Source: an uncultured Chloroflexia bacterium
GTDB lineage: Bacteria; Chloroflexota; Limnocylindria; Limnocylindrales; CSP1-4
Length of the DNA: 64,000 nucleotides
Assembly: GCA_963717255.1 (NCBI GenBank)
Contig: CAVQVT010000013.1
Coordinates: 96,760 to 160,759, forward strand
Reading direction: 5' to 3'
Shown here: positions 3,831-35,401 of the stretch, piece after piece
Position numbering within the stretch: position 1 is the first letter of the stretch
Layout: each line of letters starts with the position of its first letter
Notes under the pieces: model-generated
Seen by the model: the letters and a program-made list of their open reading frames with translations, nothing else
Told to the model about the DNA's origin: nothing
Databases searched by the model: none
Translations under genes and position numbers: made by a program

Positions 3831-3944
3831 GCCGCGGCCACCGGTCGGTGCCGGCCGGCCACCCGCTCCGGTCCGACGCGACGCGCGAACGGCACGACAC
3901 CCGGCCCTGTGCGGACGCGCCGTGCGCGCCCATCCTCCTGTCGC

Positions 3945-4016
3945 ACGGGAGGCGTCGACGCGCGGCCCCCGAAGCGGCCGCCCGGACCGCGCGAGCCACT
4001 GGCGAGACCGACCCGC
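3945..4016 (+). ncRNA. c-di-GMP-II-like riboswitch (GAG-type pocket), copy 1
   Basis: GGA-GGC-GUC-GA-[GCGCGG...CCGCGC]-GA-GCC-ACU-GGCGA-GACCGACC; kink-turn GA/GA; CGCC/GGCG pseudoknot; ends just upstream of the 4039 start; 24-nt identity with 26498-26521. Confidence 0.72.
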
Positions 4017-4038
4017 GCGGGACCCAGAGGATCCGGTC

Positions 4039-9137: not shown

Positions 9138-11693
9138 TCAGGCGGTCGCGAGCGGCGACTCGATCCGGATCCGCGCGTCCAGCACGACCGCGCCCGTCGG
9201 GAGCACGATCACGGGGTTGCAGTCCATCTCCACGATCTCGGGGTGCGCCTCCACCATCGCGCCGACGCGAAGGAGCACGTCCTCGAGCGATGCCACGTCC
9301 ACCGGCGGGGCACCCCGGTACCCGTCGAGGAGCGGGAACACCGCGAGCGACCGGACGAGCTCCGAGGCGTCCCGGTCCGTGAGCGGCGTGATGCGCACGG
9401 CGACGTCCTTCATGAGCTCCGGCTCGGTCCCGCCGCCGGCGCAGGCGATGACGGGACCGAAGAGCCGGTCGTGCACGACGCCGACCAGCATCTCGACGCC
9501 CCCGGCCACCGTCCGCCGGTCGGCCGTCGCGATCCCGTAGCAGTCGAGGAGGGCGGCGACCTCGTCGGGCCGCAGCCACCCGGACCGGCCGTCCTCGGCG
9601 CCGACGGCGCCGACCGGGAGGGACGATCCGGCCGCCGTCCCGCCCGCGGGGGACTGCGCCTCGTCGGCGCGCGCGAGCGCCGCCGCGATGACCGCGGTGG
9701 CTTCGTCCCCGCGCACGTCCGTGAAGGCCGGGACGGTCCCGGGCGGCGCCGCGCGCCACTCCGCGTATGCCGACGCGTGCGCGAGCGCGCGAACCGCTTC
9801 CTCCGGGTAGCTGAAGACGGGGACGCGCACGCGATCGCCCTGGAGGGCCGCGGGGCCGTCATCCGCGGACATGAACACCGCCAGCACCGGGATCGGCCGC
9901 GGCAGGTCGGCCGCGGCGTCGTGGATCGCCGCCGCCACGTCCTCGGCCCGCGTGCCGAGCGGCGGGACGAAGAGGACGACGAGCGCGTCGATGCCGTCCC
10001 AGGCGGCGAGGGTCTCGATCGCACGGCGGAATGACGCGGGGTCCGCGTCGATCGTGTCCACGGGATTCGTCGTCGCCGCGTCGGCGGGCAGGAAGGCCGC
10101 GAGTGCCGCCCGGACGTCCCCGGGGATCGGGGGCACGGACAGGCCGTCCGCCTCACATGCGTCCGCCGCCAGGATCCCGGGACCGCCCCCGTTCGTCAGG
10201 ATGGCGACGCGCCGCCCTGTCGGCAGGGGCTGGTTCGCGAGGAGGGCCGCCGCGTCGAAGAACTCGCCCAGCGTGTCCGTCCGGACGACCCCAGCCTGGT
10301 GGAAGAGCGCATCCACGGTCAGGTCGGAGGCGCCGATCAGGGCGCCGGTGTGCGATGAGGTCGCCCGTGCGCCGGCCGCCGACCGGCCGCTCTTCACGGC
10401 GATGACCGGCTTCGACCGCCCGACCCGCCGCGCGATGCGGGCGAACTTCCGCGGGTTGCCGAGCGACTCGAGGTAGAGCGCGATCACCGAGCAGGCCGGG
10501 TCGTCCTCCCAGTACTGGAGGAAGTCGTTGCCCGACAGGTCCGCCTTGTTCCCGATCGAGATGAAGCTCGCGAGGCCGAGGCCCAGCCGGTTCGCGTGCT
10601 CGATGATCGCGAGGCCCAGCGCGCCGCTCTGCGAGAGGAAGCCGACCCGCCCCGCGATCGGGAGGGTGGGGGAGAAGGTGGCGTTGAGCCGGACGTCGGG
10701 CTCGAGGTTGATGACGCCCATGCAGTTCGGCCCGACGAGGCGCATCCCCGCCTGGCGGCAGACGGCCACGAGCTCGCGCTGGCGCGCTGCGCCCTCGGCA
10801 CCCACCTCGGCGAACCCGCGCGAGACGACGACGATCGTCCGGACACCCTTCTCCGCGCATGCCCGTGCCGCGTGGATCGTCGCGTCGGCCGGAAGGACGA
10901 CGACCGCGAGGTCCACCGGACCCGGCACGTCGACGACCGAACGGTACGCGGCCACCGACTGCACGACGTCCGCGTTCGGGTTCACCGGGTACACGGGCCC
11001 GGTGAAGCCGCTCATGAGCAGGTTGTGGAAGAGCTCGCCGCCCAGGGTGCCCCGGCGGCGGGACGCGCCGATCACCGCGACCGACGCCGGGTGGAGGAGC
11101 GCGTGGACGGCCGCAGCGGCCGCCGTCTGCTCCCTGCGCTCGAACCGCTCGCGTGCCGGGCCCGTCAGCTCGGTGGGGAACTCCACGATCATCGCGCCCG
11201 GCTCGGCGCGGACGCGGAGCGGGAAGCCACTCGCGCGGAAGACATCGAGCATCCGCACGTTCTCGAGGAGGATCTCGGCGACGAACGTCTCGATCCCGTC
11301 TTCCTGCGCGCGGCGCGCGAGCTCCTCCAGGAGGAGCGTGGCGACGCCGCGACCCTGCCAGTCGTCCGCGACGACGAACGCCACCTCGGCCGAGTCCGGG
11401 CCGAGGCGGTCGTAGCTGCCGTTCGCGACGATCCGGCCGTCCGCCCCCACCTCCGCCACGAGCGAGCAGGACTCCTCCTCGTCGGGTGCGGCCCAGTGGT
11501 GGGCGGGGGCGGTGAAGTCGGTGGAGAGACCGGCGAAGCGCATGCGCCGCGACTCGATGGCGAGCCCCTGGAGGAACGTGACGAGCCCCGCCTCGTCGGA
11601 CGGGCGAGCCGGCCGGATGCGGATCGGCGAGCCGTCACGCAGGATCGTGTCCCGCGCGCGGTCCTGCGACGTGGCGCTCTCCGCTGGCTGCAC
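9138..11693 (-). CDS. pat: Pat-type protein lysine acetyltransferase (N-terminal GNAT + NDP-forming acyl-CoA synthetase domain; shortened ATP-grasp)
   Basis: AEVAFVVADDWQGRGVAT (GNAT), VAVIGAS, RLVGPNCMG, SQSGALG, SIGNKAD, SHTGAL, EMDCNP; GTG start after CAGGAGG. Confidence 0.85.
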   Translation of the reverse strand: MQPAESATSQDRARDTILRDGSPIRIRPARPSDEAGLVTFLQGLAIESRRMRFAGLSTDFTAPAHHWAAPDEEESCSLVAEVGADGRIVANGSYDRLGPDSAEVAFVVADDWQGRGVATLLLEELARRAQEDGIETFVAEILLENVRMLDVFRASGFPLRVRAEPGAMIVEFPTELTGPARERFERREQTAAAAAVHALLHPASVAVIGASRRRGTLGGELFHNLLMSGFTGPVYPVNPNADVVQSVAAYRSVVDVPGPVDLAVVVLPADATIHAARACAEKGVRTIVVVSRGFAEVGAEGAARQRELVAVCRQAGMRLVGPNCMGVINLEPDVRLNATFSPTLPIAGRVGFLSQSGALGLAIIEHANRLGLGLASFISIGNKADLSGNDFLQYWEDDPACSVIALYLESLGNPRKFARIARRVGRSKPVIAVKSGRSAAGARATSSHTGALIGASDLTVDALFHQAGVVRTDTLGEFFDAAALLANQPLPTGRRVAILTNGGGPGILAADACEADGLSVPPIPGDVRAALAAFLPADAATTNPVDTIDADPASFRRAIETLAAWDGIDALVVLFVPPLGTRAEDVAAAIHDAAADLPRPIPVLAVFMSADDGPAALQGDRVRVPVFSYPEEAVRALAHASAYAEWRAAPPGTVPAFTDVRGDEATAVIAAALARADEAQSPAGGTAAGSSLPVGAVGAEDGRSGWLRPDEVAALLDCYGIATADRRTVAGGVEMLVGVVHDRLFGPVIACAGGGTEPELMKDVAVRITPLTDRDASELVRSLAVFPLLDGYRGAPPVDVASLEDVLLRVGAMVEAHPEIVEMDCNPVIVLPTGAVVLDARIRIESPLATA

Positions 11694-22124: not shown

Positions 22125-22844
22125 TCATGCTTCGAACGGCTGCAGCTTCTCCTGCCCCGTGAAGAGCACGCGGTAGACGAGCCCGCCGATCACACCGCCG
22201 ACCAGCGGGGCGAGCCAGAACAGCCACAGCTGGGCGATGGCCCAGCTGCCCTGGAAGAGCGCGACGCCGGTGCTGCGCGCCGGGTTCACCGACGTGTTGG
22301 TGACCGGGATGCTGATGAGGTGGATCAGCGTGAGGGTGAGACCGATCGCGATCGGGGCGAAGCCGGCCGGCGCGCGGCGGTCGGTCGCGCCCATGATGGC
22401 GAGCACGAAGAAGGCGGTCAGCAGGACCTCGACGATCGCCGCCGACAGCAGCGAGTAGCCACCCGGCGAATGCTCGGCGAAGCCGTTCGACGCGAAGCCG
22501 GCGCTGGCATCGAAGCCGGGCTGGCCGCTGGCGACCACGTACAGCACGCCGCCGGCGGCGATCGCGGCGACCACCTGCACGACGATGTACGGGAGGAGGT
22601 CGCGCAGGTCGAACCGGCCCCCGGCCAGCAGGCCGAGCGACACCGCCGGATTGAAGTGGCCGCCAGAGATGTGTCCCACGGCGTACACCATCGTCAGCAC
22701 CGTGAGACCGAACGCGATCGAGACCCCGAGATACCCGATGCCGACATCGGGGATCCCCGCGGCCAGCACCGCGGCACCGCAGCCGCCGAACACCAGCCAG
22801 AACGTGCCGAGGAACTCGGCACCGAGTCGCTTGCTCATGGGCAT
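22125..22844 (-). CDS. aqpZ: Aquaporin Z
   Basis: [40 protein letters not shown]. Confidence 0.96.
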
Positions 22845-23055
22845 CGCGCTCTTCTCCCTCAGTGGCGTGAGACACGAAACGGTGCCAATCCTACCCTGTG
22901 GGGCGAGCCCGCCGGCGGCGGCGCCTGAGCACCATCCAGCCGGTGGCGGGGCACGCCTGCGCCATCCCCCGGAAGGGTCATAGCGGCCGTCCGTCCATCG
23001 GCCCTAGAATCCCGCGCACCGACGGCCACGTCGCATCCGGGAGGCGCCGCGGATC

Positions 23056-25257
23056 ATGTCCCTGCTCCGTCGCATGGAGAAGCTCCAGCAGGAGGCTGCC
23101 GCGCGCGCGGCCGATGCCAGCGCGGCCGAGACGCCGACTCTGCCGGCCGACACGCTGGCCGGCGATCCGGCGGCGGTCGCCGCTCCGGCGGCGCTGCCAG
23201 CCGACCCGGATGCTGCCGGGCCGGGCGAGTCGGATCCCGCCCCGCGCTCCGCTCTCGCTCCCGCAGCGGCGGATCCCGCACCCGCTCCGGCCGCGCCATC
23301 GCCCCCGAGCGCGGCCGCGGTCATCGCTGCAGCCGCGGCGGCGGCCACCGCCGCCGCGACGGGCGCGCCACCCCCCGCCCCTCCGACCTCTGCCGGGACC
23401 GCGCCGGGCACGCCCGCCGTCCTGCCCGCCGCACCCCAGGCCGCGCGGATGGCGGCCCGATCCGCGGTCCGCGAGGACATGCTCCGCGACGTCCGCATCC
23501 GCCTCCGGACGGAGGCGGCACGCTCGTCGGCATCCCTGGCGGCCGTCGCGGGACCGGACCTCCGCGGTCGCATCGAGGCGATGGTGGACCGGGTCATCGG
23601 CCTCAGCGGGTACGCGGTCACCCGCGACGAGCGGCTCCGCCTGATCGAGGACATGGTCGCCGGGATCCAGGGCTTCGGGCCCATCGAGACGTTCCTGAAG
23701 GACGAGACGGTCACCGAGGTCATGGTCAACGGCCCCGACCAGATCTACATCGAGCGGGCCGGGAAGATCCATCTGACGGACGCCGCCTTCCTCAGCGACG
23801 ACCACGTGCGGCAGATCATCGACCGGATCGTCAGCCCGATCGGCCGGCGGATCGACCAGTCGAGTCCCCGGGTGGACGCCCGCCTACCCGACGGCTCGCG
23901 CGTCAACGTCATCATCGAGCCGCTCTCCCTCGTCGGACCCGTCATCACCATCCGGAAGTTCTCCGCCCACCCGTACACCGTCGACGACCTCGTCCGGTTC
24001 GGGACCGCCACGGCTGAGATGTTCGACTTCCTGCGCGTCTGCGTGGAAGCCCAGTTGAATATCTTCGTGTCCGGCGGGACCGGGTCGGGGAAGACCACGA
24101 CCCTCAACGTGCTCTCATCCTTCATCCCGGAGGATGAGCGGATCGTCACCATCGAGGACGCGGCCGAGCTGCAGCTCCGACAGATGCACGTCGTCACGCT
24201 GGAGAGCCGCCCTCCCAACCTGGAGGGCCTCGGCGAGATCACGATCCGCGACCTCCTGCGCAACGCGCTCCACATGCGCCCGGACCGGATCATCGTGGGC
24301 GAGTGCCGGGCGGGCGAGGCGCTCGACATGATCCAGGCGATGACAGTCGGGCACGAGGGCTCCCTCTCGACCGGCCATGCGAACAGCCCGGCGGACATGC
24401 TCCGGCGCCTCGAGACCATGGTCCTCATGGCGGGGGTGGACCTCCCGCTCCGGTCCATCCGCGAGCAGATCGCCTCCGCGGTCGACGTGATCGTCCACAC
24501 CGCCCGCCTGAAGGACGGCTCCCGGAAGGTCGTCAACATCACCGAGGTGTACGGGATCGAGGACGATCGCATCCTCCTGCAGGACGTCTTCGCCTTCCAA
24601 CAGACCGGCATGCGGGACGGACGGGTCGAGGGCGCGCTCCTGCCGACCGGGATCCGGCCGACCTTCATGGGGAGGTTCAAGGCGAGCGGGATCCAGCTGC
24701 CGCCGGGCGAGTTCGGCATCCCCGCGTTCGACCCATCCCGCCCCGGCCAGGTCCGCGCCGGCAAGTCGCGCTGGGCGAGCGAGGCCGCCACGCAGGACGG
24801 GAAGCCCGCGCCGGTCACCGTCGGGCATGGACGGGTCGCGAAAGCCGGCGGCATGGTCTACGTCTCCGCGATGGGACCGGTCGACCCGGAGACCGGGCAG
24901 CTCGTCGGGGTCGGCGTCCGGGATCAGACCGTCCAGTGCATGCGCAACGTCCAGGCGCGCCTGGAGGCCGAAGGAAGCGGGCTCGACAGGATCGTCTGGG
25001 CGAGCTGGGCGCTGCGCGACCCGTCCGACTTCGACGCGTTCGACGAGGAGTGGGTGCGCTGGTTCCCGGGCGACGCACCCGTCGGCCAGGCGACGCTCAT
25101 GACGCCGGCGCATCGCCGCGCCGGCTTCCGGGTCTCCATCGGCGTCATCGCGCAGGCGGACGCTGATCCGGGCCCGCGGGCGGCCGGGGATCCGGCCCCC
25201 GGCGACGCGCCGGCCGCGAGGACGTCGCACTCGGGGACGCCGCGCCGGAAGCGGTGA
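23056..25257 (+). CDS. cpaF: TadA/CpaF-family secretion ATPase with Ala/Pro-rich N-terminus and C-terminal Rid (YjgF/UK114)-like domain
   Basis: EVMVNGP, VDARLPDGSR, GGTGSGKTT, TIEDAAEL, MRPDRIIVGE; tail MVYVSAMGPVDPETG..QTVQCMRNV..DFDAFDEEW..WF. Confidence 0.88.
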   Translation: MSLLRRMEKLQQEAAARAADASAAETPTLPADTLAGDPAAVAAPAALPADPDAAGPGESDPAPRSALAPAAADPAPAPAAPSPPSAAAVIAAAAAAATAAATGAPPPAPPTSAGTAPGTPAVLPAAPQAARMAARSAVREDMLRDVRIRLRTEAARSSASLAAVAGPDLRGRIEAMVDRVIGLSGYAVTRDERLRLIEDMVAGIQGFGPIETFLKDETVTEVMVNGPDQIYIERAGKIHLTDAAFLSDDHVRQIIDRIVSPIGRRIDQSSPRVDARLPDGSRVNVIIEPLSLVGPVITIRKFSAHPYTVDDLVRFGTATAEMFDFLRVCVEAQLNIFVSGGTGSGKTTTLNVLSSFIPEDERIVTIEDAAELQLRQMHVVTLESRPPNLEGLGEITIRDLLRNALHMRPDRIIVGECRAGEALDMIQAMTVGHEGSLSTGHANSPADMLRRLETMVLMAGVDLPLRSIREQIASAVDVIVHTARLKDGSRKVVNITEVYGIEDDRILLQDVFAFQQTGMRDGRVEGALLPTGIRPTFMGRFKASGIQLPPGEFGIPAFDPSRPGQVRAGKSRWASEAATQDGKPAPVTVGHGRVAKAGGMVYVSAMGPVDPETGQLVGVGVRDQTVQCMRNVQARLEAEGSGLDRIVWASWALRDPSDFDAFDEEWVRWFPGDAPVGQATLMTPAHRRAGFRVSIGVIAQADADPGPRAAGDPAPGDAPAARTSHSGTPRRKR

Positions 25258-25452
25258 CCGGCCCGCGGGCGCCTGTCGCGGCCGCGCCAGGGATCCGGCC
25301 GCCGGATCCCTGCACCGGGTCGCGCACCGTGGCGGCGCCGGACGGCGCGGTGCCGGGGTGGCCGGGGGCGTCGCTTCCCTCGCGCCGTAGAGTAGGGCGG
25401 GGACGGCTGGCGGCCGCTGTCTGCGGCTGCGCATACCTCGCTGGAGGGAGAG

Positions 25453-25857
25453 ATGAAGATCGAGGAGATCGAGGGCATCGGGCCCGTGTTCGCCGAGAAG
25501 CTCCAGACCGCCGGCATCGAGTCGGTCGAGGAGCTGCTCGAGAAGGGCGCGTCGCGCGCCGGCCGGGTGGCGATCGCCGACGCGACGGGCATCGAGGGCG
25601 GGAAGATCCTCGAGTGGGTCAACCACGCTGACCTCATGCGAATCAAGGGCGTCGGCTCCCAGTACTCCGACCTGCTGGAGGCCGCCGGCGTCGACTCGCC
25701 CGCCGAGCTGGCCCGGCGCAACGCGACGAATCTCGCCGACGCCTTCCAGTCCGTCGTCGCGGAGCGGCCGGGCATCGTGCGCCGCGTCCCGACGGAGGCC
25801 GAGATCGCCGGCTGGATCGCCGAGGCGAAGGACCTGCCGAAGGTCGTGGAGCACTGA
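25453..25857 (+). CDS. DUF4332 (HhH) protein
   Basis: IEEIEGIGP, ILEWVNHADLMRIKGVG, LLEAAGVD, ELARRN. Confidence 0.88.
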   Translation: MKIEEIEGIGPVFAEKLQTAGIESVEELLEKGASRAGRVAIADATGIEGGKILEWVNHADLMRIKGVGSQYSDLLEAAGVDSPAELARRNATNLADAFQSVVAERPGIVRRVPTEAEIAGWIAEAKDLPKVVEH

Positions 25858-25860
25858 TCC

Positions 25861-26265
25861 ATGGCCGCCAAGCCCAGCGCGGGGGGGTTCCGCGCCTTCC
25901 TGACCAAGACGAACGCCCTGGCTCTGGCCGTCGGCGTCATCATCGGCGCCGCCACGGGTGCGCTCGTCAACTCGCTGGTCAACAACATCATCATGCCGCC
26001 CATCGGCTGGGCCCTCGGCGGCATCGACTTCGCGGCCATGAAGATCGTCCTCGGCACGAACGCCAAGGGCGAGGAGGTCGCGATCGCCTACGGCCTCTTC
26101 ATCAACTCGCTCATCTCGTTCGTCATCCTCATGCTGGTGGTGTACCTCCTCGCGATGTGGTTCATCCGCGAGGAGCCTGCCGCCCCCAGCAAGGAGTGCC
26201 CCTTCTGCAAGGAGGCGAACGCCGAGACCGCGACGAAGTGCAAGTTCTGCGCGAGCGCGATCTGA
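25861..26265 (+). CDS. mscL: Large-conductance mechanosensitive channel with C-terminal zinc ribbon
   Basis: FRAFL..N..LAVGVIIG, SLV.NIIMP, YGLFIN; tail CPFC...ATKCKFC. Confidence 0.9.
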   Translation: MAAKPSAGGFRAFLTKTNALALAVGVIIGAATGALVNSLVNNIIMPPIGWALGGIDFAAMKIVLGTNAKGEEVAIAYGLFINSLISFVILMLVVYLLAMWFIREEPAAPSKECPFCKEANAETATKCKFCASAI

Positions 26266-26331: not shown

Positions 26332-26446
26332 CGCCGGCCCGCTCTCCGGCCGACGCGAGCGGTGGGATCGCGGATCGAGTCCGACGCCGCCGACGTGACG
26401 GATGACACTTGGCGCGGCGCCGCCGACGAGCGCAGCGTGGGCCCGC

Positions 26447-26521
26447 ACGCGGGAGGCGAGGACGCGCGGGCCGGATCCAGGTCGCCGGGCCCGCGCCGAG
26501 CCACTGGCGAGACCGACCCGC
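26447..26521 (+). ncRNA. c-di-GMP-II-like riboswitch (GAG-type pocket), copy 2
   Basis: GGA-GGC-GAG-GA-[GCGCGGGCC...GGCCCGCGC]-C-GA-GCC-ACU-GGCGA-GACCGACC; loop UCGCC pairs with GGCGA; 40 nt upstream of ATG 26561. Confidence 0.8.
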
Positions 26522-26560
26522 CGTCGACGGGCCGCCCGATGATGGGGCGGAGGGGGAGCG

Positions 26561-26782
26561 ATGAACCGGCTGCGCGGCCTCGACCTCGGGGCCATCATCA
26601 TCGGCGTGCTGGTCCTCGGGGTGGGCGCCTACTACGTCCTGGTCAACACGTTCGGCGTGAACCTGCCCGACCTGGACTGGGACAAGATCTGGCCACTCGC
26701 GATCGTGGCCCTCGGCATCGCGATCCTCGCGGGCGCCTTGAGCCGGATGGGCCGCGGCGGACACGGGCCGCAGGGGGTCTGA
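26561..26782 (+). CDS. Small 2-TM membrane protein (LiaI/LiaF-TM-like)
   Basis: GGAG RBS; G.II...G.YY.L.N.FG...WDKIWPL.IV.LGI pattern. Confidence 0.75.
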   Translation: MNRLRGLDLGAIIIGVLVLGVGAYYVLVNTFGVNLPDLDWDKIWPLAIVALGIAILAGALSRMGRGGHGPQGV

Positions 26783-28692: not shown

Positions 28693-28918
28693 ATGCGATC
28701 GTCCAGCGTCGATCCGGCCCGCCCGCCGCGCTCCGATCGTCTCGGGGAGCCCCTGCCGTCCGGCTCCCCGAGAGGCCGCGAAGGGGCACGCTCGACCGAC
28801 CGGAATGGCCCTGTCACCGTGAGCCGCGGTCCCCCTAGGATCGAGCGGATCGCCGTGCTCCTCGCGGGCCGGGTCACCGGACCGCACCTGGGAGCACGGC
28901 CTCCGTTTGGAGGCTTCG

Positions 28919-29452
28919 ATGACCACCGGCCTGGTGACGGCGTCGACGCGCGACGAGGATCGGGACCTGATCGACCGCGTCATCGGCGACCAGGCCGGGC
29001 GCCCCGGCGCGCTGCTCGGCATCCTGGAGAAGCTGCAGGAGCACCACCGCCACAAGTACCTCCCGATGGAGACGCTCGAGTACGTCGCCGCACGGACGGG
29101 CGTCCCCCAGTCGCAGGTCTACGGCGTGGCGACCTTCTACGCGCTCTTCAACCTGGACCCGCAGGGCACCCACACCGTGGCGATCTGCCGCGGCACCGCC
29201 TGTCACACCCGCGGATCGCGGGCACTGCTCGAGCGCGTGAAGCTGCAGCTCGGCCTGCAGGAGGTGGGCGAGGGTGCCGACAAGCTCACGCTCACCACGC
29301 CGGACCGTCGTTTCACCATCCGCACCGTCGCGTGCTTCGGCCAGTGCGCGCTGGCCCCGGTGGTCGAGGTGAACCACGCGATCCGCGGGCACGTGAAGGA
29401 GCAGGCGCTCATCCGCGAGGTCGAGACGCTGCGGAAGGATGGCGGACGATGA
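28919..29452 (+). CDS. hoxE: NuoE/HoxE-like [2Fe-2S] subunit
   Basis: VYGVATFY, CRGTAC, CFGQCALAP. Confidence 0.9.
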   Translation: MTTGLVTASTRDEDRDLIDRVIGDQAGRPGALLGILEKLQEHHRHKYLPMETLEYVAARTGVPQSQVYGVATFYALFNLDPQGTHTVAICRGTACHTRGSRALLERVKLQLGLQEVGEGADKLTLTTPDRRFTIRTVACFGQCALAPVVEVNHAIRGHVKEQALIREVETLRKDGGR

Positions 29453-32400
29453 GGATCCAGGACATCGCCGCCTTCGCCGCGGTTCGCGAAGCCGGCCTCG
29501 CGAAGATCGTCCCGAGCAAGCCCCGCATCGGCGTGGGCATGGGCACGTGCGGCTCCGGCAACGGCGCGGAGTCGGTCTTCCACGCATTCGCCTCCGAGAT
29601 CGACGCGCGGGGCCTCGCCATCCAGCTTGCGCCGGTCGGCTGCTTCGGCTACTGCGCCGAGGAGCCGCTCGTCAACGTCTGGGTCCCGGGCCGCCCACTG
29701 CTCATGCTGCGACAGGTCCAGCCGAACCACGTGGACGCGATCCTCGGCGCGATCGGCCGCGGCCAGATGCCGCCGGACGAGATCGTCCTCTGCAAGATCG
29801 AGGAGTGGGACCACCTCACTGGCCACGTCAAGTACGGCTACGGCTACCCGGAGGTCCCTCACTGGCACGAGCTGCCCTTCTTCTCCGGGCAGGTCAAGAC
29901 CGTCCTGCGCAACTGCGGGCTCATCAACCCGGACGACATCGAGGAATACGTCGCGATCGGCGGATACCAGGCCCTGTACAAGGTCCTGATCGACCAGAAC
30001 CCCGCCGGCGTGATCGAGCAGATCAAGGCCGCCAAGCTCCGCGGCCGCGGCGGGGCCGGGTATCTCACCGGGAACAAGTGGGAGTTCCTCCAGAAGGCCG
30101 TCGACCCGGTCAAGTACGTCATCTGCAACGCGGACGAGGGCGACCCCGGCGCGTACATGAACCGCAACGAGATCGAGTCCGACCCGCATGCGCTCCTCGA
30201 GGGGATGCTGATCGGCGGCTTCGTGACCGGCGCAACGCGCGGGATCGTCTACGTCCGCGCCGAGTATCCGCTCGCGGTCCTGCGCCTCGAGCGCGCGATC
30301 GACCAGGCGCGGGCCTACGGCGTCCTCGGCGAGAACGTCCTCGGCCGCGGCTTCTCGTTCGACATCGAGCTCGTGGAGGGCGCGGGCGCCTTCGTGTGCG
30401 GCGAGGAGACTGCCCTCATCGCGTCCCTGGAGGGCCACTCCGGGCGCCCCAGGACGCGTCCGCCGTTCCCGGCCCAGAAGGGCCTGTACGGCAAGCCGAC
30501 GAACATCAACAACGTCGAGACCTGGTACAACGTCGCGCCCATCGTGTCCAAGGGCCCGGCCTGGTTCACGGAGACCGGCAGCCCCAAGAGCCCGGGCACC
30601 AAGGTCTTCTCGCTGGTCGGCAAGGTGAAGAGCACCGGCCTCGTCGAGATGCCGCTCGGGACGCCCCTCGCCAAGTTCATCTACGACGTCGGCGAGGGCG
30701 GCACGAACGGCCGCGACATCAAGGCGGTCCAGACGGGCGGTCCGTCGGGCGGCTGCATCCCGGCCGAGATGTTCGACACCCCGGTCGACTACGAGACGCT
30801 CGCTCAGCTCGGCTCGATCATGGGCTCGGGCGGCATGGTCGTCATGGACGCCGACAACTGCATGGTCGACGTCGCCCGCTACTTCATCGAGTTCACCCAC
30901 TCGGAGAGCTGCGGGAAGTGCGTCCCGTGCCGCGTCGGCCTCGACAAGGCGCTGCGGATCCTCGACCGCTGCACGCTCGGCAAAGCGACCCACGAGGATC
31001 TCGCGGCGCTCGACGAGCTGTGCCGCATGGTCCGCGACACGTCGCTCTGCGGGCTCGGCCAGAGCGCCCCCAACCCGGTGCTCACCACGCTGCGCCACTT
31101 CCGCCACGAGTTCGAGGACCACATCGTCGCGAAACGCTGTCGCGCCGGCGTGTGCGAGGACCTTGCGCTCTCGCCCTGTGAGAACTCGTGCCCGCTGCAC
31201 ATGAACATCCCGCGCTTCCTGCAGCTGTACAAGGAGGGGCGCCTCGAGGATGCGTTCCTCTCGGTGATCTTCGACAACCCGCTGCCAGCCTCCACCGGAC
31301 GCGTGTGCCAGCACCCGTGCGACGACCGCTGCCGACGCGCCGCGGTGGACGAGGCGGTGAACATGCGCGACGTCCATCGGCTCATCGCGGACCAGGTGCT
31401 GCTCTCCGACCGGTTCGACGCGATGGTCGAGCGCGTGCGCGAGCGCCGGCTCGAGCCGACCGGGCGGGAGATCGCGATCGTGGGCGCAGGGCCCACGGGC
31501 CTCGCCTGCGCGTTCTACCTCGCGCTCCTGGGCCACAGCGTCGTCGTCTACGACTCGCGGCCGGCCGCCGGCGGGATGCTCCGCTACGCGCTTCCGGAGT
31601 ACCGCCTTCCCAAGACGGTGCTGGACAAGGAGATCGAGCTCATCGAGCGGATGGGCGTCCGCTTCCAGTTCAACGTGAACGTGGGCGAGGACATCACGCT
31701 CAACGACATCGCCCATCAGTACGACGCGGTCTTCCTCGCCATCGGGACGTGGAAGGAAGCGTGGGTCTACCTGCCCGGCACGGAGCTCACGGGGGTCATC
31801 CCCGCGCTGCCCTTCCTCGAGGCCGTCGCGCGCGACGAGCAGGTACCGGTCGGGAGGAGCGTGGTCGTGATCGGCGGCGGCAATGCCGCGATCGACTCGG
31901 CACGCACGGCGCGACGGCTCGGCGCCGAAGTCACCGTCGCCTATCGCCGCGAGCGCAAGGACATGCCCGCGATCCCCGAGGAGGTCGAGGCGGCCGAGCA
32001 CGAGGGCGTGAAGGTCGTCTACCTCGCCGCCCCGCATCGGATCGTCGGCGACAAGAACGGCCAGGTCCGCGCGATCGAGGCCGTCCGGACGAAGCTCGGC
32101 GAGTTCGACACCTCGGGCCGGCGCCGGCCGGTGTCCACCGACGAGGTCATCCGCTTCGAGTGCGACACGGTGGTGCTCGCGGTCGGCGAGAAGGTGGACC
32201 CTGACTTCCTGAAGGCCTCGGGCCTGAAGGCCAGGGAGGCCGGCACGATCGAGGTGGACCGCTACACGCTCGAGACGAGCCGCGAACGCTTCTACGCCGG
32301 CGGCGACCTGATCACCGGCGCCTCGAACGTCTCGAACGCGATGGGCTACGGCAAGAAGGCCGCCCGGAACATCGACAAGAAGCTGATGGGGCGGAAGCGC

Positions 32401-32604
32401 TTCGCCGGTCTCCTCCCCGAGTTCGAGTACGCGATGGAGCCACCCGAGACGCCGGTCGAGGACGGGCGCCACGTGCCCGCCGAGACGCCCGCCGCCCAGC
32501 GGGTGGGCTCCTACGCCGAGGTCTCGCTCGGCCTCACCCCCGTGGCGGCCGTCTCGGAGACGTCCCGCTGCCTGCGCTGCGACATCCGCAGCGCCGAGCG
32601 CTAG
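29449..32604 (+). CDS. hoxF: HoxF/NuoF diaphorase subunit fused to a GltD/NfnB-like FAD/NADP(H) oxidoreductase
   Basis: N-terminal thioredoxin-like 2Fe-2S domain; LRGRGGAG, CNADEGDPG, GAFVCGEET, ESCGKCVPCR; then PCENSCP, GRVC.HPC...C, GAGPTG, GGGNAAID, YRR, RCLRC. Confidence 0.9.
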   Translation: MRIQDIAAFAAVREAGLAKIVPSKPRIGVGMGTCGSGNGAESVFHAFASEIDARGLAIQLAPVGCFGYCAEEPLVNVWVPGRPLLMLRQVQPNHVDAILGAIGRGQMPPDEIVLCKIEEWDHLTGHVKYGYGYPEVPHWHELPFFSGQVKTVLRNCGLINPDDIEEYVAIGGYQALYKVLIDQNPAGVIEQIKAAKLRGRGGAGYLTGNKWEFLQKAVDPVKYVICNADEGDPGAYMNRNEIESDPHALLEGMLIGGFVTGATRGIVYVRAEYPLAVLRLERAIDQARAYGVLGENVLGRGFSFDIELVEGAGAFVCGEETALIASLEGHSGRPRTRPPFPAQKGLYGKPTNINNVETWYNVAPIVSKGPAWFTETGSPKSPGTKVFSLVGKVKSTGLVEMPLGTPLAKFIYDVGEGGTNGRDIKAVQTGGPSGGCIPAEMFDTPVDYETLAQLGSIMGSGGMVVMDADNCMVDVARYFIEFTHSESCGKCVPCRVGLDKALRILDRCTLGKATHEDLAALDELCRMVRDTSLCGLGQSAPNPVLTTLRHFRHEFEDHIVAKRCRAGVCEDLALSPCENSCPLHMNIPRFLQLYKEGRLEDAFLSVIFDNPLPASTGRVCQHPCDDRCRRAAVDEAVNMRDVHRLIADQVLLSDRFDAMVERVRERRLEPTGREIAIVGAGPTGLACAFYLALLGHSVVVYDSRPAAGGMLRYALPEYRLPKTVLDKEIELIERMGVRFQFNVNVGEDITLNDIAHQYDAVFLAIGTWKEAWVYLPGTELTGVIPALPFLEAVARDEQVPVGRSVVVIGGGNAAIDSARTARRLGAEVTVAYRRERKDMPAIPEEVEAAEHEGVKVVYLAAPHRIVGDKNGQVRAIEAVRTKLGEFDTSGRRRPVSTDEVIRFECDTVVLAVGEKVDPDFLKASGLKAREAGTIEVDRYTLETSRERFYAGGDLITGASNVSNAMGYGKKAARNIDKKLMGRKRFAGLLPEFEYAMEPPETPVEDGRHVPAETPAAQRVGSYAEVSLGLTPVAAVSETSRCLRCDIRSAER

Positions 32605-32616
32605 GGAGGCCCCGTC

Positions 32617-33324
32617 GTGTCCGAGAAGGTGAAGGTCCGCATCGACGGCGAGGTGATCGCAGCCACCGCCGGCCAGACGATCCTGGAGGTCGCGCGGGCG
32701 AACAACACGTACATCCCGGCTCTCTGCTACATGGAGGGCCTGAGCGCGGTCGGCGCCTGCCGGCTGTGCATGGTCGAGATCTCCGGCGTCGGCAAGCTCC
32801 AGCCAGCCTGCACCACCCCGGTGCAGGAGGGCCTGGCGGTCGTGACCACGTCGCCACAGCTCGAGGCCTACCGGAAGATCGCCCTCGAGCTGCTCTTCGC
32901 CGAGCGCAACCACGTCTGCGCGGTGTGCGTCTCGTCGGGACACTGCGAGCTGCAGACCCTCGCCCAGGACCACGGCGTGACGCACGTCCGCTATCCGTAC
33001 AGCTACCCGCGCCTGTCGGTGGACACCTCTCACCCGCGATACGTGCTCGACCACAACCGCTGCATCCTCTGCTCGCGCTGCGTCCGCGCCTGCGCCGAGA
33101 TCGAGGGAGCCCACGTCTGGGACTTCGCCGGTCGCGGCATCCAGTCGCTCCTCGTCTCGGAGCTGAAGCGGCCCTGGGGCGAGTCGTCGTCGTGCACGAG
33201 CTGCGGCAAGTGCGTCCAGGCGTGCCCCACCGGCGCGATGGCCGAGAAGGGCTGGGGCGTCGAGGAGATGACCAAGCAGAGGTCGGTCGTCAGCCGCCTC
33301 TCGTCCATGCGGGAGGGCGACTGA
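32617..33324 (+). CDS. hoxU: Bidirectional hydrogenase diaphorase subunit HoxU
   Basis: IPALC, GACRLC, ERNHVCAVC...CELQ, RCILCSRCVRAC, CTSCGKCVQACPTGA. Confidence 0.93.
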   Translation: MSEKVKVRIDGEVIAATAGQTILEVARANNTYIPALCYMEGLSAVGACRLCMVEISGVGKLQPACTTPVQEGLAVVTTSPQLEAYRKIALELLFAERNHVCAVCVSSGHCELQTLAQDHGVTHVRYPYSYPRLSVDTSHPRYVLDHNRCILCSRCVRACAEIEGAHVWDFAGRGIQSLLVSELKRPWGESSSCTSCGKCVQACPTGAMAEKGWGVEEMTKQRSVVSRLSSMREGD

Positions 33325-33854
33325 TGGACAGGCCCACGATCGGTACCTGCTGGCTCGACGGCTGCTCGGGCTGTCACATGTCGCTGCTCGACATCGACGA
33401 GGGCATCGTCGCCGTGCTCCGCAAGGCGGACATCGTGTTCGGCCCCCTGGTGGACGCGCAGGAGTGGCCCGAAGGAGTGGACGTCGCGGTCATCGAGGGC
33501 GCGATCAGCAGCCAGGACGATCTCAAGCTCGCCCAGACCGCCCGGGCGCGGAGCCAGGTCGTGGTCGCGCTCGGCGACTGTGCCGTGACCGGCAACGTCC
33601 CCGCCATGCGCAACGGGATCCCCACGCGACGGCTGCTCGAGCGGGTCTACGTGGAGGGTGCCACGGCGCAGCCACAGATCCCGAGCGACGGCGTGCCTGC
33701 GCTGCTCAAGCAGGCGCAGCCGCTGCACCAGTCGATCAGGGTGGACGTCCACGTCCCGGGCTGCCCGCCGAAGCCCAGCGCGATCCTGACGGTGCTCGGC
33801 GAGCTGCTCGATGGCCGGGTGCCGGATCTCGGCTCCAGGCTGCGGTTCGGGTGA
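33324..33854 (+). CDS. hoxY: [NiFe]-hydrogenase small subunit (group 3d)
   Basis: WLDGCSGCHMS, GDCAVTGNV, PGCPP. Confidence 0.92.
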   Translation: MDRPTIGTCWLDGCSGCHMSLLDIDEGIVAVLRKADIVFGPLVDAQEWPEGVDVAVIEGAISSQDDLKLAQTARARSQVVVALGDCAVTGNVPAMRNGIPTRRLLERVYVEGATAQPQIPSDGVPALLKQAQPLHQSIRVDVHVPGCPPKPSAILTVLGELLDGRVPDLGSRLRFG

Positions 33855-33979
33855 GGCCGGCCATGACGACCAGACGAGACGACGCCGGGAGCGCCGGCCG
33901 CGCACAGCGGGCCCGCAAGGGCGGCGCCAGGCCTGCGACGGTGCCCGCCCCGCAGCCGGCGGAGGCCGGGAGGCCAGCC

Positions 33980-35401
33980 ATGACCAAGATCACGATCGAC
34001 CACATCACGCGGATCGAGGGCCACGGCCGGATCACCATCCGGCTCGACGAGGCCGGGAAGGTCGCGGACGCCCGGTTCCACGTCACCCAGGTCCGCGGCT
34101 TCGAGAAGTTCACCGTCGGGCGGCCGTACTACGAGATGCCGTCGATCACGTCGCGCATCTGCGGCATCTGCCCGGTGAGCCATCTCCTCGCCTCCGCGAA
34201 GGCGTGCGATGACATCATGGCCGTGCGCGTCCCGCAGACCGCCGCGTTGCTGCGCGAGCTGCTCCATTGCGCCCAGGTCGTGCAGTCCCACGCGCTGTCG
34301 TTCTTCCACCTCTCGGCGCCGGACCTGCTCCTGGGCATGGACGCCGACCCTGCCCGACGCAACATCGCGGGCCTCCTCGAGGAGCATCCCGACGCGCTGC
34401 GTGACGGGATCGCCCTGCGCAAGTTCGGCCAGCAGGTCATCGAACGGCTCGCGCGTGAGCGCGTCCACCCGTCGTGGGTCGTGCCCGGTGGCGTGAACGC
34501 GCCGCTCGACCCGCAGGCGCGCGAGAAGACGCTCGCCGAGATCCCCGCCGCGGCGGCGATCGTGCAGCGCACCCTGGCACTCTGGAAGAGGACCGTCGCG
34601 GACTTCCCGGACGAGATCGAGGCGTTCAGCAACTTCCCCACCATGTACTGCGGCCTGGTGGGGCCGGACGGATCGCTGCGGCTCTACGACGGGAACCTGC
34701 GCTTCGTCGACGCTGCCGGGAACGTCGTCGCCGACCAGGTGCGGCCGGACGACTACGCGGCCCGCATCGGCGAGGCGACCCTGCCGGACTCGTATCTCAA
34801 GTCCCCGTACTACCTGCCCGCCGGCTACCCCGACGGCATCTACCGGGTCGGCCCGCTCGCGCGCCTCAACGTCGCGGACCGGTGCGGGACGCCGGAGGCC
34901 GACGCCGAGCTCGAGGAGTACCGGACGCGGTTCGGGCGCATCGTCCAGAGCGGCTTCCACTACCACTACGCGCGGCTCATCGAGGCCCTGTACGCGCTCG
35001 AGCGGATGCAGCAGCTGCTCGACGACCCGGCCATCCTCGGCACGAAGGTCCGTGCTCACGCCGGCGTGAACGCGTCCGAGGGCACGGGGATCATCGAGGC
35101 GCCTCGCGGGACTCTCATCCACCACTACAAGGTGGACGACAACGGCGCGATCACCTGGGCGAACCTGATCGTCGCCACCGGCCACAACAACCTGGCCATC
35201 GGGCGCGGCGTCCTCCAGGTCGCGCAGCGATTCGTGGACGGGACGAAGATCCAGGAGGGCGCGCTCAATCGCGTCTCGGCCCTGGTACGCGCGTACGACC
35301 CGTGCCTCAGCTGCTCCACGCACGCTCTGGGCATGGCGTCGGTGGTCCTCGAGCTGCGCGGCGCGGACGGCGCCCTGCTCGACGAGGCGGCGACGCCGTA
35401 G
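33980..35401 (+). CDS. hoxH: [NiFe]-hydrogenase large subunit (group 3d)
   Basis: TRIEGH, RGFEKF, RICGICPVSH (L1), EAPRGTL.HHY, DPCLSCSTH (L2) plus a cleavable C-terminal tail. Confidence 0.95.
   Translation: MTKITIDHITRIEGHGRITIRLDEAGKVADARFHVTQVRGFEKFTVGRPYYEMPSITSRICGICPVSHLLASAKACDDIMAVRVPQTAALLRELLHCAQVVQSHALSFFHLSAPDLLLGMDADPARRNIAGLLEEHPDALRDGIALRKFGQQVIERLARERVHPSWVVPGGVNAPLDPQAREKTLAEIPAAAAIVQRTLALWKRTVADFPDEIEAFSNFPTMYCGLVGPDGSLRLYDGNLRFVDAAGNVVADQVRPDDYAARIGEATLPDSYLKSPYYLPAGYPDGIYRVGPLARLNVADRCGTPEADAELEEYRTRFGRIVQSGFHYHYARLIEALYALERMQQLLDDPAILGTKVRAHAGVNASEGTGIIEAPRGTLIHHYKVDDNGAITWANLIVATGHNNLAIGRGVLQVAQRFVDGTKIQEGALNRVSALVRAYDPCLSCSTHALGMASVVLELRGADGALLDEAATP

Follow-up and report, generated by a model that had tools for sequence, protein, structure and literature searches.

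A CpaF/TadA-type ATPase that runs on, in the same reading frame, into a domain of the Rid fold is encoded at positions 23056 to 25257 of the forward strand of a 64,000-nucleotide stretch of DNA from an uncultured Chloroflexia bacterium (Chloroflexota; Limnocylindria; Limnocylindrales; CSP1-4), taken from contig CAVQVT010000013.1 of assembly GCA_963717255.1 (positions 96,760 to 160,759). This whole stretch, here called the window, has 73% G+C and contains no N. The fusion recurs in relatives of a single family, where it is present in addition to the canonical ATPase of the Tad pilus. The protein can be identified with certainty as a variant, new in its architecture and in its catalytic residues, of a known motor family, whereas confidence in its mechanism, which has to be reasoned from related systems, is moderate. 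The reading that we favour, at a probability of roughly 45%, is that of an accessory CpaF paralogue that would modulate the Tad machine in a single orientation and carry a non-enzymatic Rid cap.

Architecture of the fused protein

The gene and its parts are as follows; residue numbers refer to the 733-residue protein.

23056..25257, + strand: whole open reading frame (ORF), CpaF-type ATPase plus Rid domain, 733 amino acids plus stop
23039..23044, + strand: Shine-Dalgarno-like GGGAGG, read directly from the sequence, 11 nucleotides 5' of the ATG
23056..23112, + strand: N-terminal segment beginning with MSLLRRMEKLQQEA, in agreement with the family consensus N-terminus MSLLQRVERAQQ
23113..23469, + strand: Ala/Pro-rich, probably disordered region, residues ~20-138, mean entropy 1.95
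23470..23682, + strand: three-helix-bundle region, residues ~139-209, limits approximated from Caulobacter numbering
23683..24042, + strand: N-terminal domain, residues ~210-329, with helix alpha5 and loop 8 at residues 248-271 (from alignment)
24043..24720, + strand: C-terminal ATPase domain and C-terminal motif, residues ~330-555 (from Pfam and alignments)
24073..24096, + strand: Walker A motif GGTGSGKT, residues 340-347; K346 corresponds to Caulobacter K287
24271..24273, + strand: His406, at the site of the inter-chain arginine finger, Caulobacter R347 (from alignment)
24391..24393, + strand: Ala446, at the site of the retraction-face Arg, Caulobacter R387 (from alignment)
24721..24825, + strand: linker, residues 556-590, variable and of low confidence in the model
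24826..25158, + strand: Rid-fold domain, residues 591-701 (from Pfam, the 2csl alignment and the model)
25159..25254, + strand: Pro/Ala/Arg-rich tail of 32 amino acids after the Rid domain, residues 702-733 (from alignment)

Pfam places a T2SSE domain (PF00437) at residues 206-484 (E 1.4e-63, 215.3 bits against a cut-off of 24.9) and a Ribonuc_L-PSP domain (PF01042) at residues 593-699, that is nucleotides 24832-25152 (E 2.2e-13, 50.7 bits against a cut-off of 27.3). The G+C content of codon position 3 is at least 0.88 in each 120-nucleotide segment from 23386 to 25186; since it is steady over the junction between the ATPase and the Rid domain, a single frame codes across it. An in-frame CpaF/TadA-Rid fusion, with the Rid part at about 24815-25155, had been proposed in a first-pass annotation made from the sequence alone, and both the fusion and the location agree with these results; the same annotation had drawn attention to an N-terminal Ala/Pro stretch, which indeed extends over residues ~20-125 and is absent from most relatives, this N-terminal region being longer here than in most of them (~600 amino acids in total).

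The linker contains a basic G-K-G-R-W motif (residues 569-573, 24760-24774), in which K570 is found in 119 and R572 in 118 of 121 sequences, while the C-terminal tail (702-733) is shared by few close relatives, its columns being gapped in 110-118 of the 121. A full-length AlphaFold2 model of residues 128-705 was poor (predicted local distance difference test, pLDDT, 66.6; predicted template-modelling score, pTM, 0.47) and supports no claim. Scans of 22700-25600 for consensus promoters and terminators, which are ill-suited to this high-GC lineage, returned no site of either kind, and Rfam gave no RNA element upstream of the fused gene.

The fusion is genuine

The fusion is real and conserved, and is not the product of a lost stop codon. 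PF00437 and PF01042 occur together in 117 of the 120 best protein-database matches (70-93% identity), most of them of ~600 amino acids and many on separate contigs. A tblastn scan of species-representative genomes gave 80 loci, all in Chloroflexota metagenome-assembled genomes (MAGs), many of which are titled Candidatus Limnocylindria or Limnocylindrales; the Rid tail is present at 73 of them, while the seven loci without it are four canonical cpaF genes (468-498 amino acids) in tad loci and three genes apparently cut by contig ends. Moreover, a metagenome contig of another study spans 24535-25156 with 20 substitutions and no gap; by manual count from the table, 16 of the 19 differences listed fall at codon position 3 and three at position 1, and none of the runs of this independent-assembly comparison reported an insertion, a deletion or a joint.

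The possibility that the fusion stems from faulty assembly or annotation, or from the recent loss of a stop codon, is close to nil and was rejected: nothing was found in its favour, the only background being that the source MAG (2.9 Mb, 16 contigs) is 81% complete, and against it stand the recurrence in independent species-level loci and protein clusters, the in-frame codon composition and the gap-free independent contig across the junction, and the conservation of linker and tail at the protein level. The two outcomes named beforehand as fatal to the proposal, a fusion unique to this genome and a tail without the Rid fold, are thus both ruled out, the former by these counts and the latter by the model and Foldseek matches given below.

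Four MAG assemblies contain fused-type loci in pairs (L017/L021, L013/L049, L030/L052 and L011/L084), so that some genomes may hold two copies; L056 and L057 may be a single region assembled twice.

An additional paralogue of the canonical CpaF

The T2SSE domain and the homology over the whole of CpaF assign the protein to the CpaF/TadA branch of the PilT/VirB11-like secretion ATPases. The best NCBIfam model, TIGR03819 (TadA-family ATPase, helicase/secretion neighbourhoods), scores 309.6 bits, under its cut-off of 373.15, and membership of that family was rejected on this ground.

The source genome contains exactly two T2SSE matches, the fused gene and a 469-amino-acid CpaF on another contig (C7), and two T2SSF matches, with no others, both adjoining this second CpaF. 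Contig C7 carries a complete tad locus, the main locus that the first-pass annotation had advised to locate; it comprises three Flp-like pilin genes, CpaB (SAF and RcpC domains), a CpaE/TadZ-kind protein (receiver-ParA), CpaF, TadB and TadC, and two HisKA_3 kinases and a LuxR-type response regulator are encoded on its flanks. The pilin genes are located as follows.

L085 (G000:C7:212001-228000), 9767-10979, - strand: three tandem Flp-like pilin genes

Over 435 amino acids, the fused protein and the C7 CpaF share 67% identity, and the latter stops two residues past LPPGLFGF, precisely where the fused protein runs on. A quick maximum-likelihood tree of 63 rows gathered all 30 fused sequences on one side of a branch (SH-aLRT 100, stem 0.69), with the canonical proteins as their sister group (support 92) and three long-branched non-fused proteins outside both; end branches measure ~0.1-0.3 in the fused and 0.01-0.09 in the canonical group. 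A single origin of the fusion is likely, and not proven, because the rooting of the tree relies on long branches.

At the class level, comprising 151 genomes, strong matches to the tail (E <1e-45) are confined to one GTDB family (f1), where they are found in 33 of 44 genomes, and to the source genome; they lie in frames of 545-1111 amino acids, and the weak matches of the other families, in short frames, are stand-alone Rid proteins. At the phylum level, with 251 Chloroflexota genomes and E <=1e-30, the tail was found in seven of 11 genomes of the same family and in the source genome, and in none of 239 genomes of other families. The fused proteins are thus one clade, found in a single family of Limnocylindria. 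T2SSF is present in all 44 genomes of this family and in the source genome, nearly always as one pair (in the T2SSF tallies, families f3 and f4 take in seven unpublished genomes, and the f1 counts are without them). Thirteen genomes of the family were covered by both the tail and the T2SSE searches: the seven with the tail all have at least two T2SSE matches, while among the six without it five have one match and the sixth has a second, weaker one to a different ATPase. Since the tail-bearing genomes carry an extra T2SSE, the fused gene is an extra paralogue, added to the canonical motor and no substitute for it.

Kept and changed residues of the motor domain

Structures of Caulobacter crescentus CpaF, the bifunctional ATPase of the Tad (Flp, type IVc) system (PDB 8rkd, 8rjf and 9e24), match the ATPase part with E ~1e-112; the matched region, ~376 residues long, takes in some of the three-helix bundle as well as the N-domain and the ATPase domain. 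Residues were compared between 115 fused and 118 canonical Limnocylindria CpaF proteins, a Caulobacter number being the residue number in the window's protein minus 59.

K287, T288, E357, D215, R217 and R223 (Caulobacter numbers) are invariant in both groups, and E312 is invariant in the fused proteins and present in 117 of the 118 canonical ones; accordingly, K346, T347, E371 and E416, together with D274 and the N-domain arginine fingers R276 and R282, occur in 115/115 fused sequences, and the His box GHEGSLSTGHAN is present as well. The contacts with the platform described for Caulobacter in the passages of Yen et al. (2025) drawn on here are G204, R205, R206 and D208 in loop 8, and E331 and G334 in the pore loop. 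Those of loop 8 (here G263, R264, R265 and D267) are kept in all 115 fused proteins, G204 being found in 117 of the 118 canonical ones; in the pore loop, E390 (E331) is kept in 113 and G393 (G334) in all 115 fused proteins. The Walker A and B motifs, the Asp and His boxes, the N-domain fingers and the loop-8 and pore-loop contacts are thus shared with the Caulobacter enzyme.

The inter-chain arginine finger, R347, contacts the ATP gamma-phosphate of the neighbouring chain and is conserved across all type IV filament ATPases, according to the same passages (Yen et al. 2025). In the fused protein this residue is His406: His is found in 115/115 fused sequences and Arg in 118/118 canonical ones, and the genome loci agree, with His in 62/62 fused ORFs and Arg in 4/4 canonical genes. 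A further clade-specific residue is R272 (Caulobacter position 213), which is Arg in all fused proteins and Met in 116 of the 118 canonical ones. At the R387 site the canonical proteins have Arg throughout (118/118), whereas the 115 fused ones vary (P 45, A 21, R 19, K 7 and L 5, among others) with invariant neighbouring residues. The three-helix bundle, the domain limits of which are approximate, has a mean entropy of 1.36 in the fused and 0.07 in the canonical group; conversely, pore-loop positions 335 and 337 are fixed in each paralogue, as E and T in the fused and as A and P in the canonical proteins.

Over 463 shared columns the mean entropy is 0.663 for the fused and 0.213 for the canonical proteins, and by this measure the fused clade evolves several-fold faster than the canonical copy. 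Twenty positions are at least 90% conserved within each paralogue group and differ between them.

The motor had been called intact and taken for an alternative pilus motor. The first part of this description stands as far as the Walker A motif, the Asp box, Walker B and the His box are concerned, which are present with their key residues invariant; it fails at the inter-chain finger. An intact alternative motor is not supported, given the His finger in every fused protein, the unconstrained retraction-face Arg and the high variability of the three-helix bundle.

The Rid domain

A model computed from an alignment of 63 tails reached an overall pLDDT of 86, with values above 92 over the domain and below 50 in the preceding linker. 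All its top Foldseek matches are Rid-family structures, with template-modelling scores of 0.74-0.89 and a root-mean-square deviation of 1.4 A over 109 columns for Arabidopsis RidA (5hp7); the nearest solved structure is that of Thermus thermophilus RidA, TTHA0137 (2csl, E 5.9e-17). With a PF01042 score above the cut-off and a predicted chorismate-mutase-like Rid fold, the domain belongs to the Rid superfamily.

Alignment with 2csl puts H591 at Tyr17, G677 at Arg105 and S694 at Glu120. Among 121 sequences, the Arg105 position is Gly in 119 and the Glu120 position Ser in 114, while the Tyr17 position is unconstrained (Y 49, H 25, Q 15, L 7). The earlier observation that the P-A-R motif reads PVG and VEI(E/D) reads VSIG thus holds in the alignment with both 2csl and stand-alone relatives. 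In RidA, Arg105 binds the substrate carboxylate and its change almost abolishes imine hydrolysis, as stated in the part of Niehaus et al. (2015) consulted. The domain lacks this set of RidA-type imine/enamine deaminase residues (Arg105, Tyr17 and Glu120), and on these substitutions a RidA-type enzyme appears very unlikely. In lacking the Arg, the domain resembles the Rid4-7 subfamilies.

The nearest stand-alone relatives, found in a search of 1.84 billion representatives, have ~127 amino acids and are 41-45% identical over the matched stretches; in a separate alignment the identity to stand-alone relatives is 29-39%. They read ...YSQAV...NEEW.RWFP.DPPARQG...VSI..IAEA, with PARQ kept and Gln at position 593. 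Because these relatives also read VSI, the Glu120 change is older than the fusion; judging from the alignments, the replacement of Arg105 by Gly is peculiar to the fused clade and goes with Gln-to-Arg at 593. The combination of Arg, Gly and Ser at positions 593, 677 and 694 is found in 108 of the 115 fused proteins.

In the same 115 proteins the mean column entropy of the Rid domain is 0.59, compared with 0.50 for the ATPase N-domain, and 49 of its 111 columns have one residue in at least 95% of the sequences; G592, R593, Q678, R687 and R692 are newly invariant, and a two-residue insertion with a QRRAGF motif is present. By these conservation measures the domain is held under strong purifying selection. 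Since the catalytic residues are lost, with Arg105 replaced by Gly and Glu120 by Ser, and selection is nevertheless purifying, a non-enzymatic role in binding or organising is reasonable, in line with the first-pass view of a catalytically degenerate domain.

Three other Rid-family genes occur in the genome, on contigs C6 and C4 (L086, L087 and L089): a canonical RidA in which every catalytic residue is kept, an RPAAT one, which has no Arg at the 105 position, and a weak HARS match. The canonical RidA, with Tyr, GPYSHA, PYPARS and VEIEAIA, lies on C6, and the possibility that the fused domain is the genome's housekeeping RidA was rejected on account of it. In many database proteins of ~370-460 amino acids (P0140, P0145, P0147, P0152 and others) the Rid tail was matched in three stretches; they are tandem triple-Rid proteins, a kind described as 3x-RidA, covalent trimers, in the consulted part of Niehaus et al. 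(2015).

Gene neighbourhood

No tad gene was found in the neighbourhood examined, 11.7-39.6 kb of the window, and all the T2SSF matches of the genome lie on another contig, as expected from the first-pass remark that none was nearby; the fused gene is not encoded with tadB/tadC, cpaB, cpaE/tadZ or flp. The nearest genes are the following.

22125-22844, - strand: divergent aquaporin (MIP)
25453-25857: DUF4332
25861-26265: MscL
26543-26782: LiaI/LiaF-like small membrane ORF

A class II tRNA synthetase and redox enzymes are also encoded in the window. These neighbours rarely recur in the 80 loci (MIP in none, DUF4332 in two, MscL in one, the LiaI-like ORF in none), and TadB/C is near the gene in four loci, all of them canonical cpaF loci. 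No consistent cluster emerged, the commonest neighbour within four genes being a generic GAF-histidine kinase, at 12 of the 48 fused loci recognised by the motif filter.

Two matches to the c-di-GMP-II-GAG riboswitch variant (RF03169, gathering score 40) are present on the + strand of the window, at 26443-26527 and 3939-4022 (63.7 and 62.4 bits); the former lies just upstream of the LiaI/LiaF-like ORF and ~1.2 kb downstream of the fused gene. Farther away, the region 28693-35401 (+ strand) contains a 1303-amino-acid ORF in which Nuo51-type FMN and 4Fe-4S domains are joined to a GltD-like pyridine-nucleotide-disulphide oxidoreductase; after this ORF come a 2Fe-2S/4Fe-4S protein and a homologue of the NiFe-hydrogenase large subunit. 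This arrangement suggests a soluble bidirectional hydrogenase-like module.

A proposed one-orientation modulator of the Tad machine

The favoured reading would start from one duplication of the tad-locus cpaF in one Limnocylindria family, followed by the gain of the Rid fold at the C-terminus. Two statements on Caulobacter, in the passages of the preprint by Whitfield et al. (bioRxiv 10.64898/2026.02.24.707734) drawn on here, guide its next steps: in the model put forward by the authors, CpaF meets the platform by its N-face during extension and turns over to present the C-face for retraction, and they report no visible retraction with R387A, nor with a C-terminal mCherry fusion. The fused ring would still dock on the single TadB/TadC platform through its N-terminal, or extension, face, because the N-face contact residues are invariant, while its C-terminal, or retraction, face would be unusable, because Rid domains would hang from it and the retraction-critical Arg is not conserved. 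Put together, the folded C-terminal domain, the unconstrained R387 site and the kept N-face contacts point to a ring for which the extension orientation may be the only way of docking. With an invariant His as its inter-chain finger, the ring probably has a changed ATP cycle, with slowed or altered turnover. Such a protein would not be a stand-alone ordinary motor but a modulator of pilus dynamics, perhaps by holding, by slow extension or by competition with the bidirectional canonical CpaF, and its Rid domain could act as a structural cap, or as a module for oligomerisation or ligand binding, rather than as an imine deaminase.

Several points weigh against this proposal. The beta13-beta14 turn KDGSRK and the C-terminal motif TGIRPTFM, which belong to the same face as R387, have stayed highly conserved in the fused clade, which shows that this face is not in plain decay, and Arg is still found at the R387 site in 19 of the 115 fused proteins. 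The His at the finger site might still support catalysis, with the clade-specific Arg272 in compensation; the linker, of ~35 residues, may be long enough for the Rid domains to swing off the C-face; and the variable three-helix bundle could reflect a lost contact with the pilus machine. Paralogy and co-occurrence are the only ties between the gene and the pilus, since none of its neighbours is conserved and tad genes never accompany it. Finally, all functional steps, from platform docking to blocked retraction and altered turnover, are carried over by analogy from Caulobacter, and the retraction model itself comes from a preprint and is built largely on AlphaFold3 models (Whitfield et al., in the part consulted).

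A more elaborate version of the proposal is a ligand-gated clutch: a CpaF ring confined to its extension face, capped on the retraction face by two Rid trimers and throttled in its turnover by the His, would be released or locked by a small molecule through a remodelled Rid cleft, in which the Arg has passed from position 677 to 593. We regard this version as distinctly unlikely. Were it true, evolution would have supplied an independent test of the motor-inversion model for Tad retraction, and the protein would be the first case of a Rid fold serving as a regulatory module on a molecular motor.

Alternative explanations

Closest to the first-pass proposal is a fully competent alternative Tad motor, whose Rid cap would bind a metabolite and switch the motor, coupling metabolism to piliation. 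The invariant Walker A Lys, Walker B Glu and Asp-box Glu, the two N-domain arginine fingers and the platform contacts all speak for competence; likewise, the Rid domain is strongly conserved, and G592, R593, Q678, R687 and R692 could shape a changed binding cleft. Indeed, since the stand-alone relatives have the cleft Arg and a Gln at 593, the exchange of Q for R at 593 and of R for G at 677 resembles a guanidinium group that has been moved, and not plain decay. Nevertheless, the inter-chain Arg finger, conserved elsewhere in type IV filament ATPases in the account of Yen et al. (2025) drawn on here, is His in all 115 proteins, the residues for ligand binding and catalysis in RidA are changed (Arg105, Glu120) or unconstrained (Tyr17), and the domain has no known or predicted ligand. 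We therefore consider a fully competent motor unlikely, and the first-pass interpretation, taken as a whole, is partly supported.

A second alternative is that the fused protein enters mixed hexamers with the canonical CpaF, where the missing trans finger would silence the neighbouring site and the Rid domain would mark or cross-link the ring, making it a dose-dependent poison or governor subunit. Compatible with this are the 67% identity to the canonical CpaF across the whole ATPase, the constant co-occurrence of a canonical copy in the genomes compared, and the action of the Arg finger in trans on the adjacent chain (Yen et al. 2025, passages drawn on here). The 20 group-specific conserved positions and the long stem (0.69) argue instead for separate, self-consistent assemblies, and the literature passages covered show no mixed rings for this ATPase family; mixed rings thus seem rather improbable.

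We give still less credence to a third alternative, according to which the paralogue has left the pilus system and become a Tad-independent ATP-driven machine or switch, with the Rid domain as its business end. It would explain why neither tad genes nor any conserved neighbour accompany the gene (the four of 80 loci with TadB/C being all canonical), why the three-helix bundle and the N-terminus evolve freely, and why the whole protein evolves several-fold faster than the canonical copy (0.663 vs 0.213). However, the residues predicted to contact the TadB/C homologues are invariant, the pore-loop differences are fixed and not random, tadB/C is present in every sampled genome of the family, and the gene context yields no alternative partner.

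Comparison with known systems

Compared with canonical CpaF, the fused protein has a C-terminal Rid domain, His at R347, an unconserved R387 site and a variable three-helix bundle, and its gene occurs apart from tad loci and in addition to the canonical cpaF. The passages of Yen et al. (2025) drawn on here divide 292 CpaF orthologues into three classes that differ at the N-terminus only; the fused protein shares an N-terminal disordered region with their class II. In the supplementary table of that study, as far as consulted, there is no Limnocylindria entry, and the Chloroflexota row seen is Chloroflexus aurantiacus, with 465 amino acids. No literature was found on a CpaF-Rid fusion, nor on pili in Limnocylindria.

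The engineered CpaF-mCherry of Caulobacter (Whitfield et al., bioRxiv 10.64898/2026.02.24.707734, part consulted) also has a folded domain on the C-terminus, at the proposed retraction face. The fused paralogue differs from it in being natural and conserved, in its changed Arg finger and in a Rid fold that normally trimerises. With RidA/YjgF/UK114 the domain shares the fold, and it is distinguished by the Gly and Ser changes, the QRRAGF insertion, R593 and the covalent link to an ATPase. A parallel may also be drawn with the PilB/PilT pairs of type IVa pili, since here, too, two paralogous hexameric ATPases could share a platform and differ in the face that they present to it (Whitfield et al., part consulted). 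Unlike PilB and PilT, both are of CpaF type: the canonical copy keeps the residues for both orientations, while the fused copy looks, from its residue pattern, extension-limited with a weakened active site.

Biological meaning

One and the same ATPase drives both extension and retraction of Tad pili, and the preprint by Whitfield et al. (2026) proposes a reversal by inversion of the ring, with retraction arrested when the C-face is blocked. The lineage described here appears to have run this C-face-blocking experiment itself, having kept a normal cpaF and acquired a capped second copy. Should the fusion be a merely tolerated appendage, it would be a curiosity of domain architecture. If, on the other hand, the behaviour proposed here is true, the fused protein would be a natural one-way or braking motor to be compared with the mCherry fusion; it would represent a fourth, C-terminal, architecture class of CpaF and a non-enzymatic use of the widespread Rid fold, in a lineage of abundant, uncultured soil and freshwater Chloroflexota.

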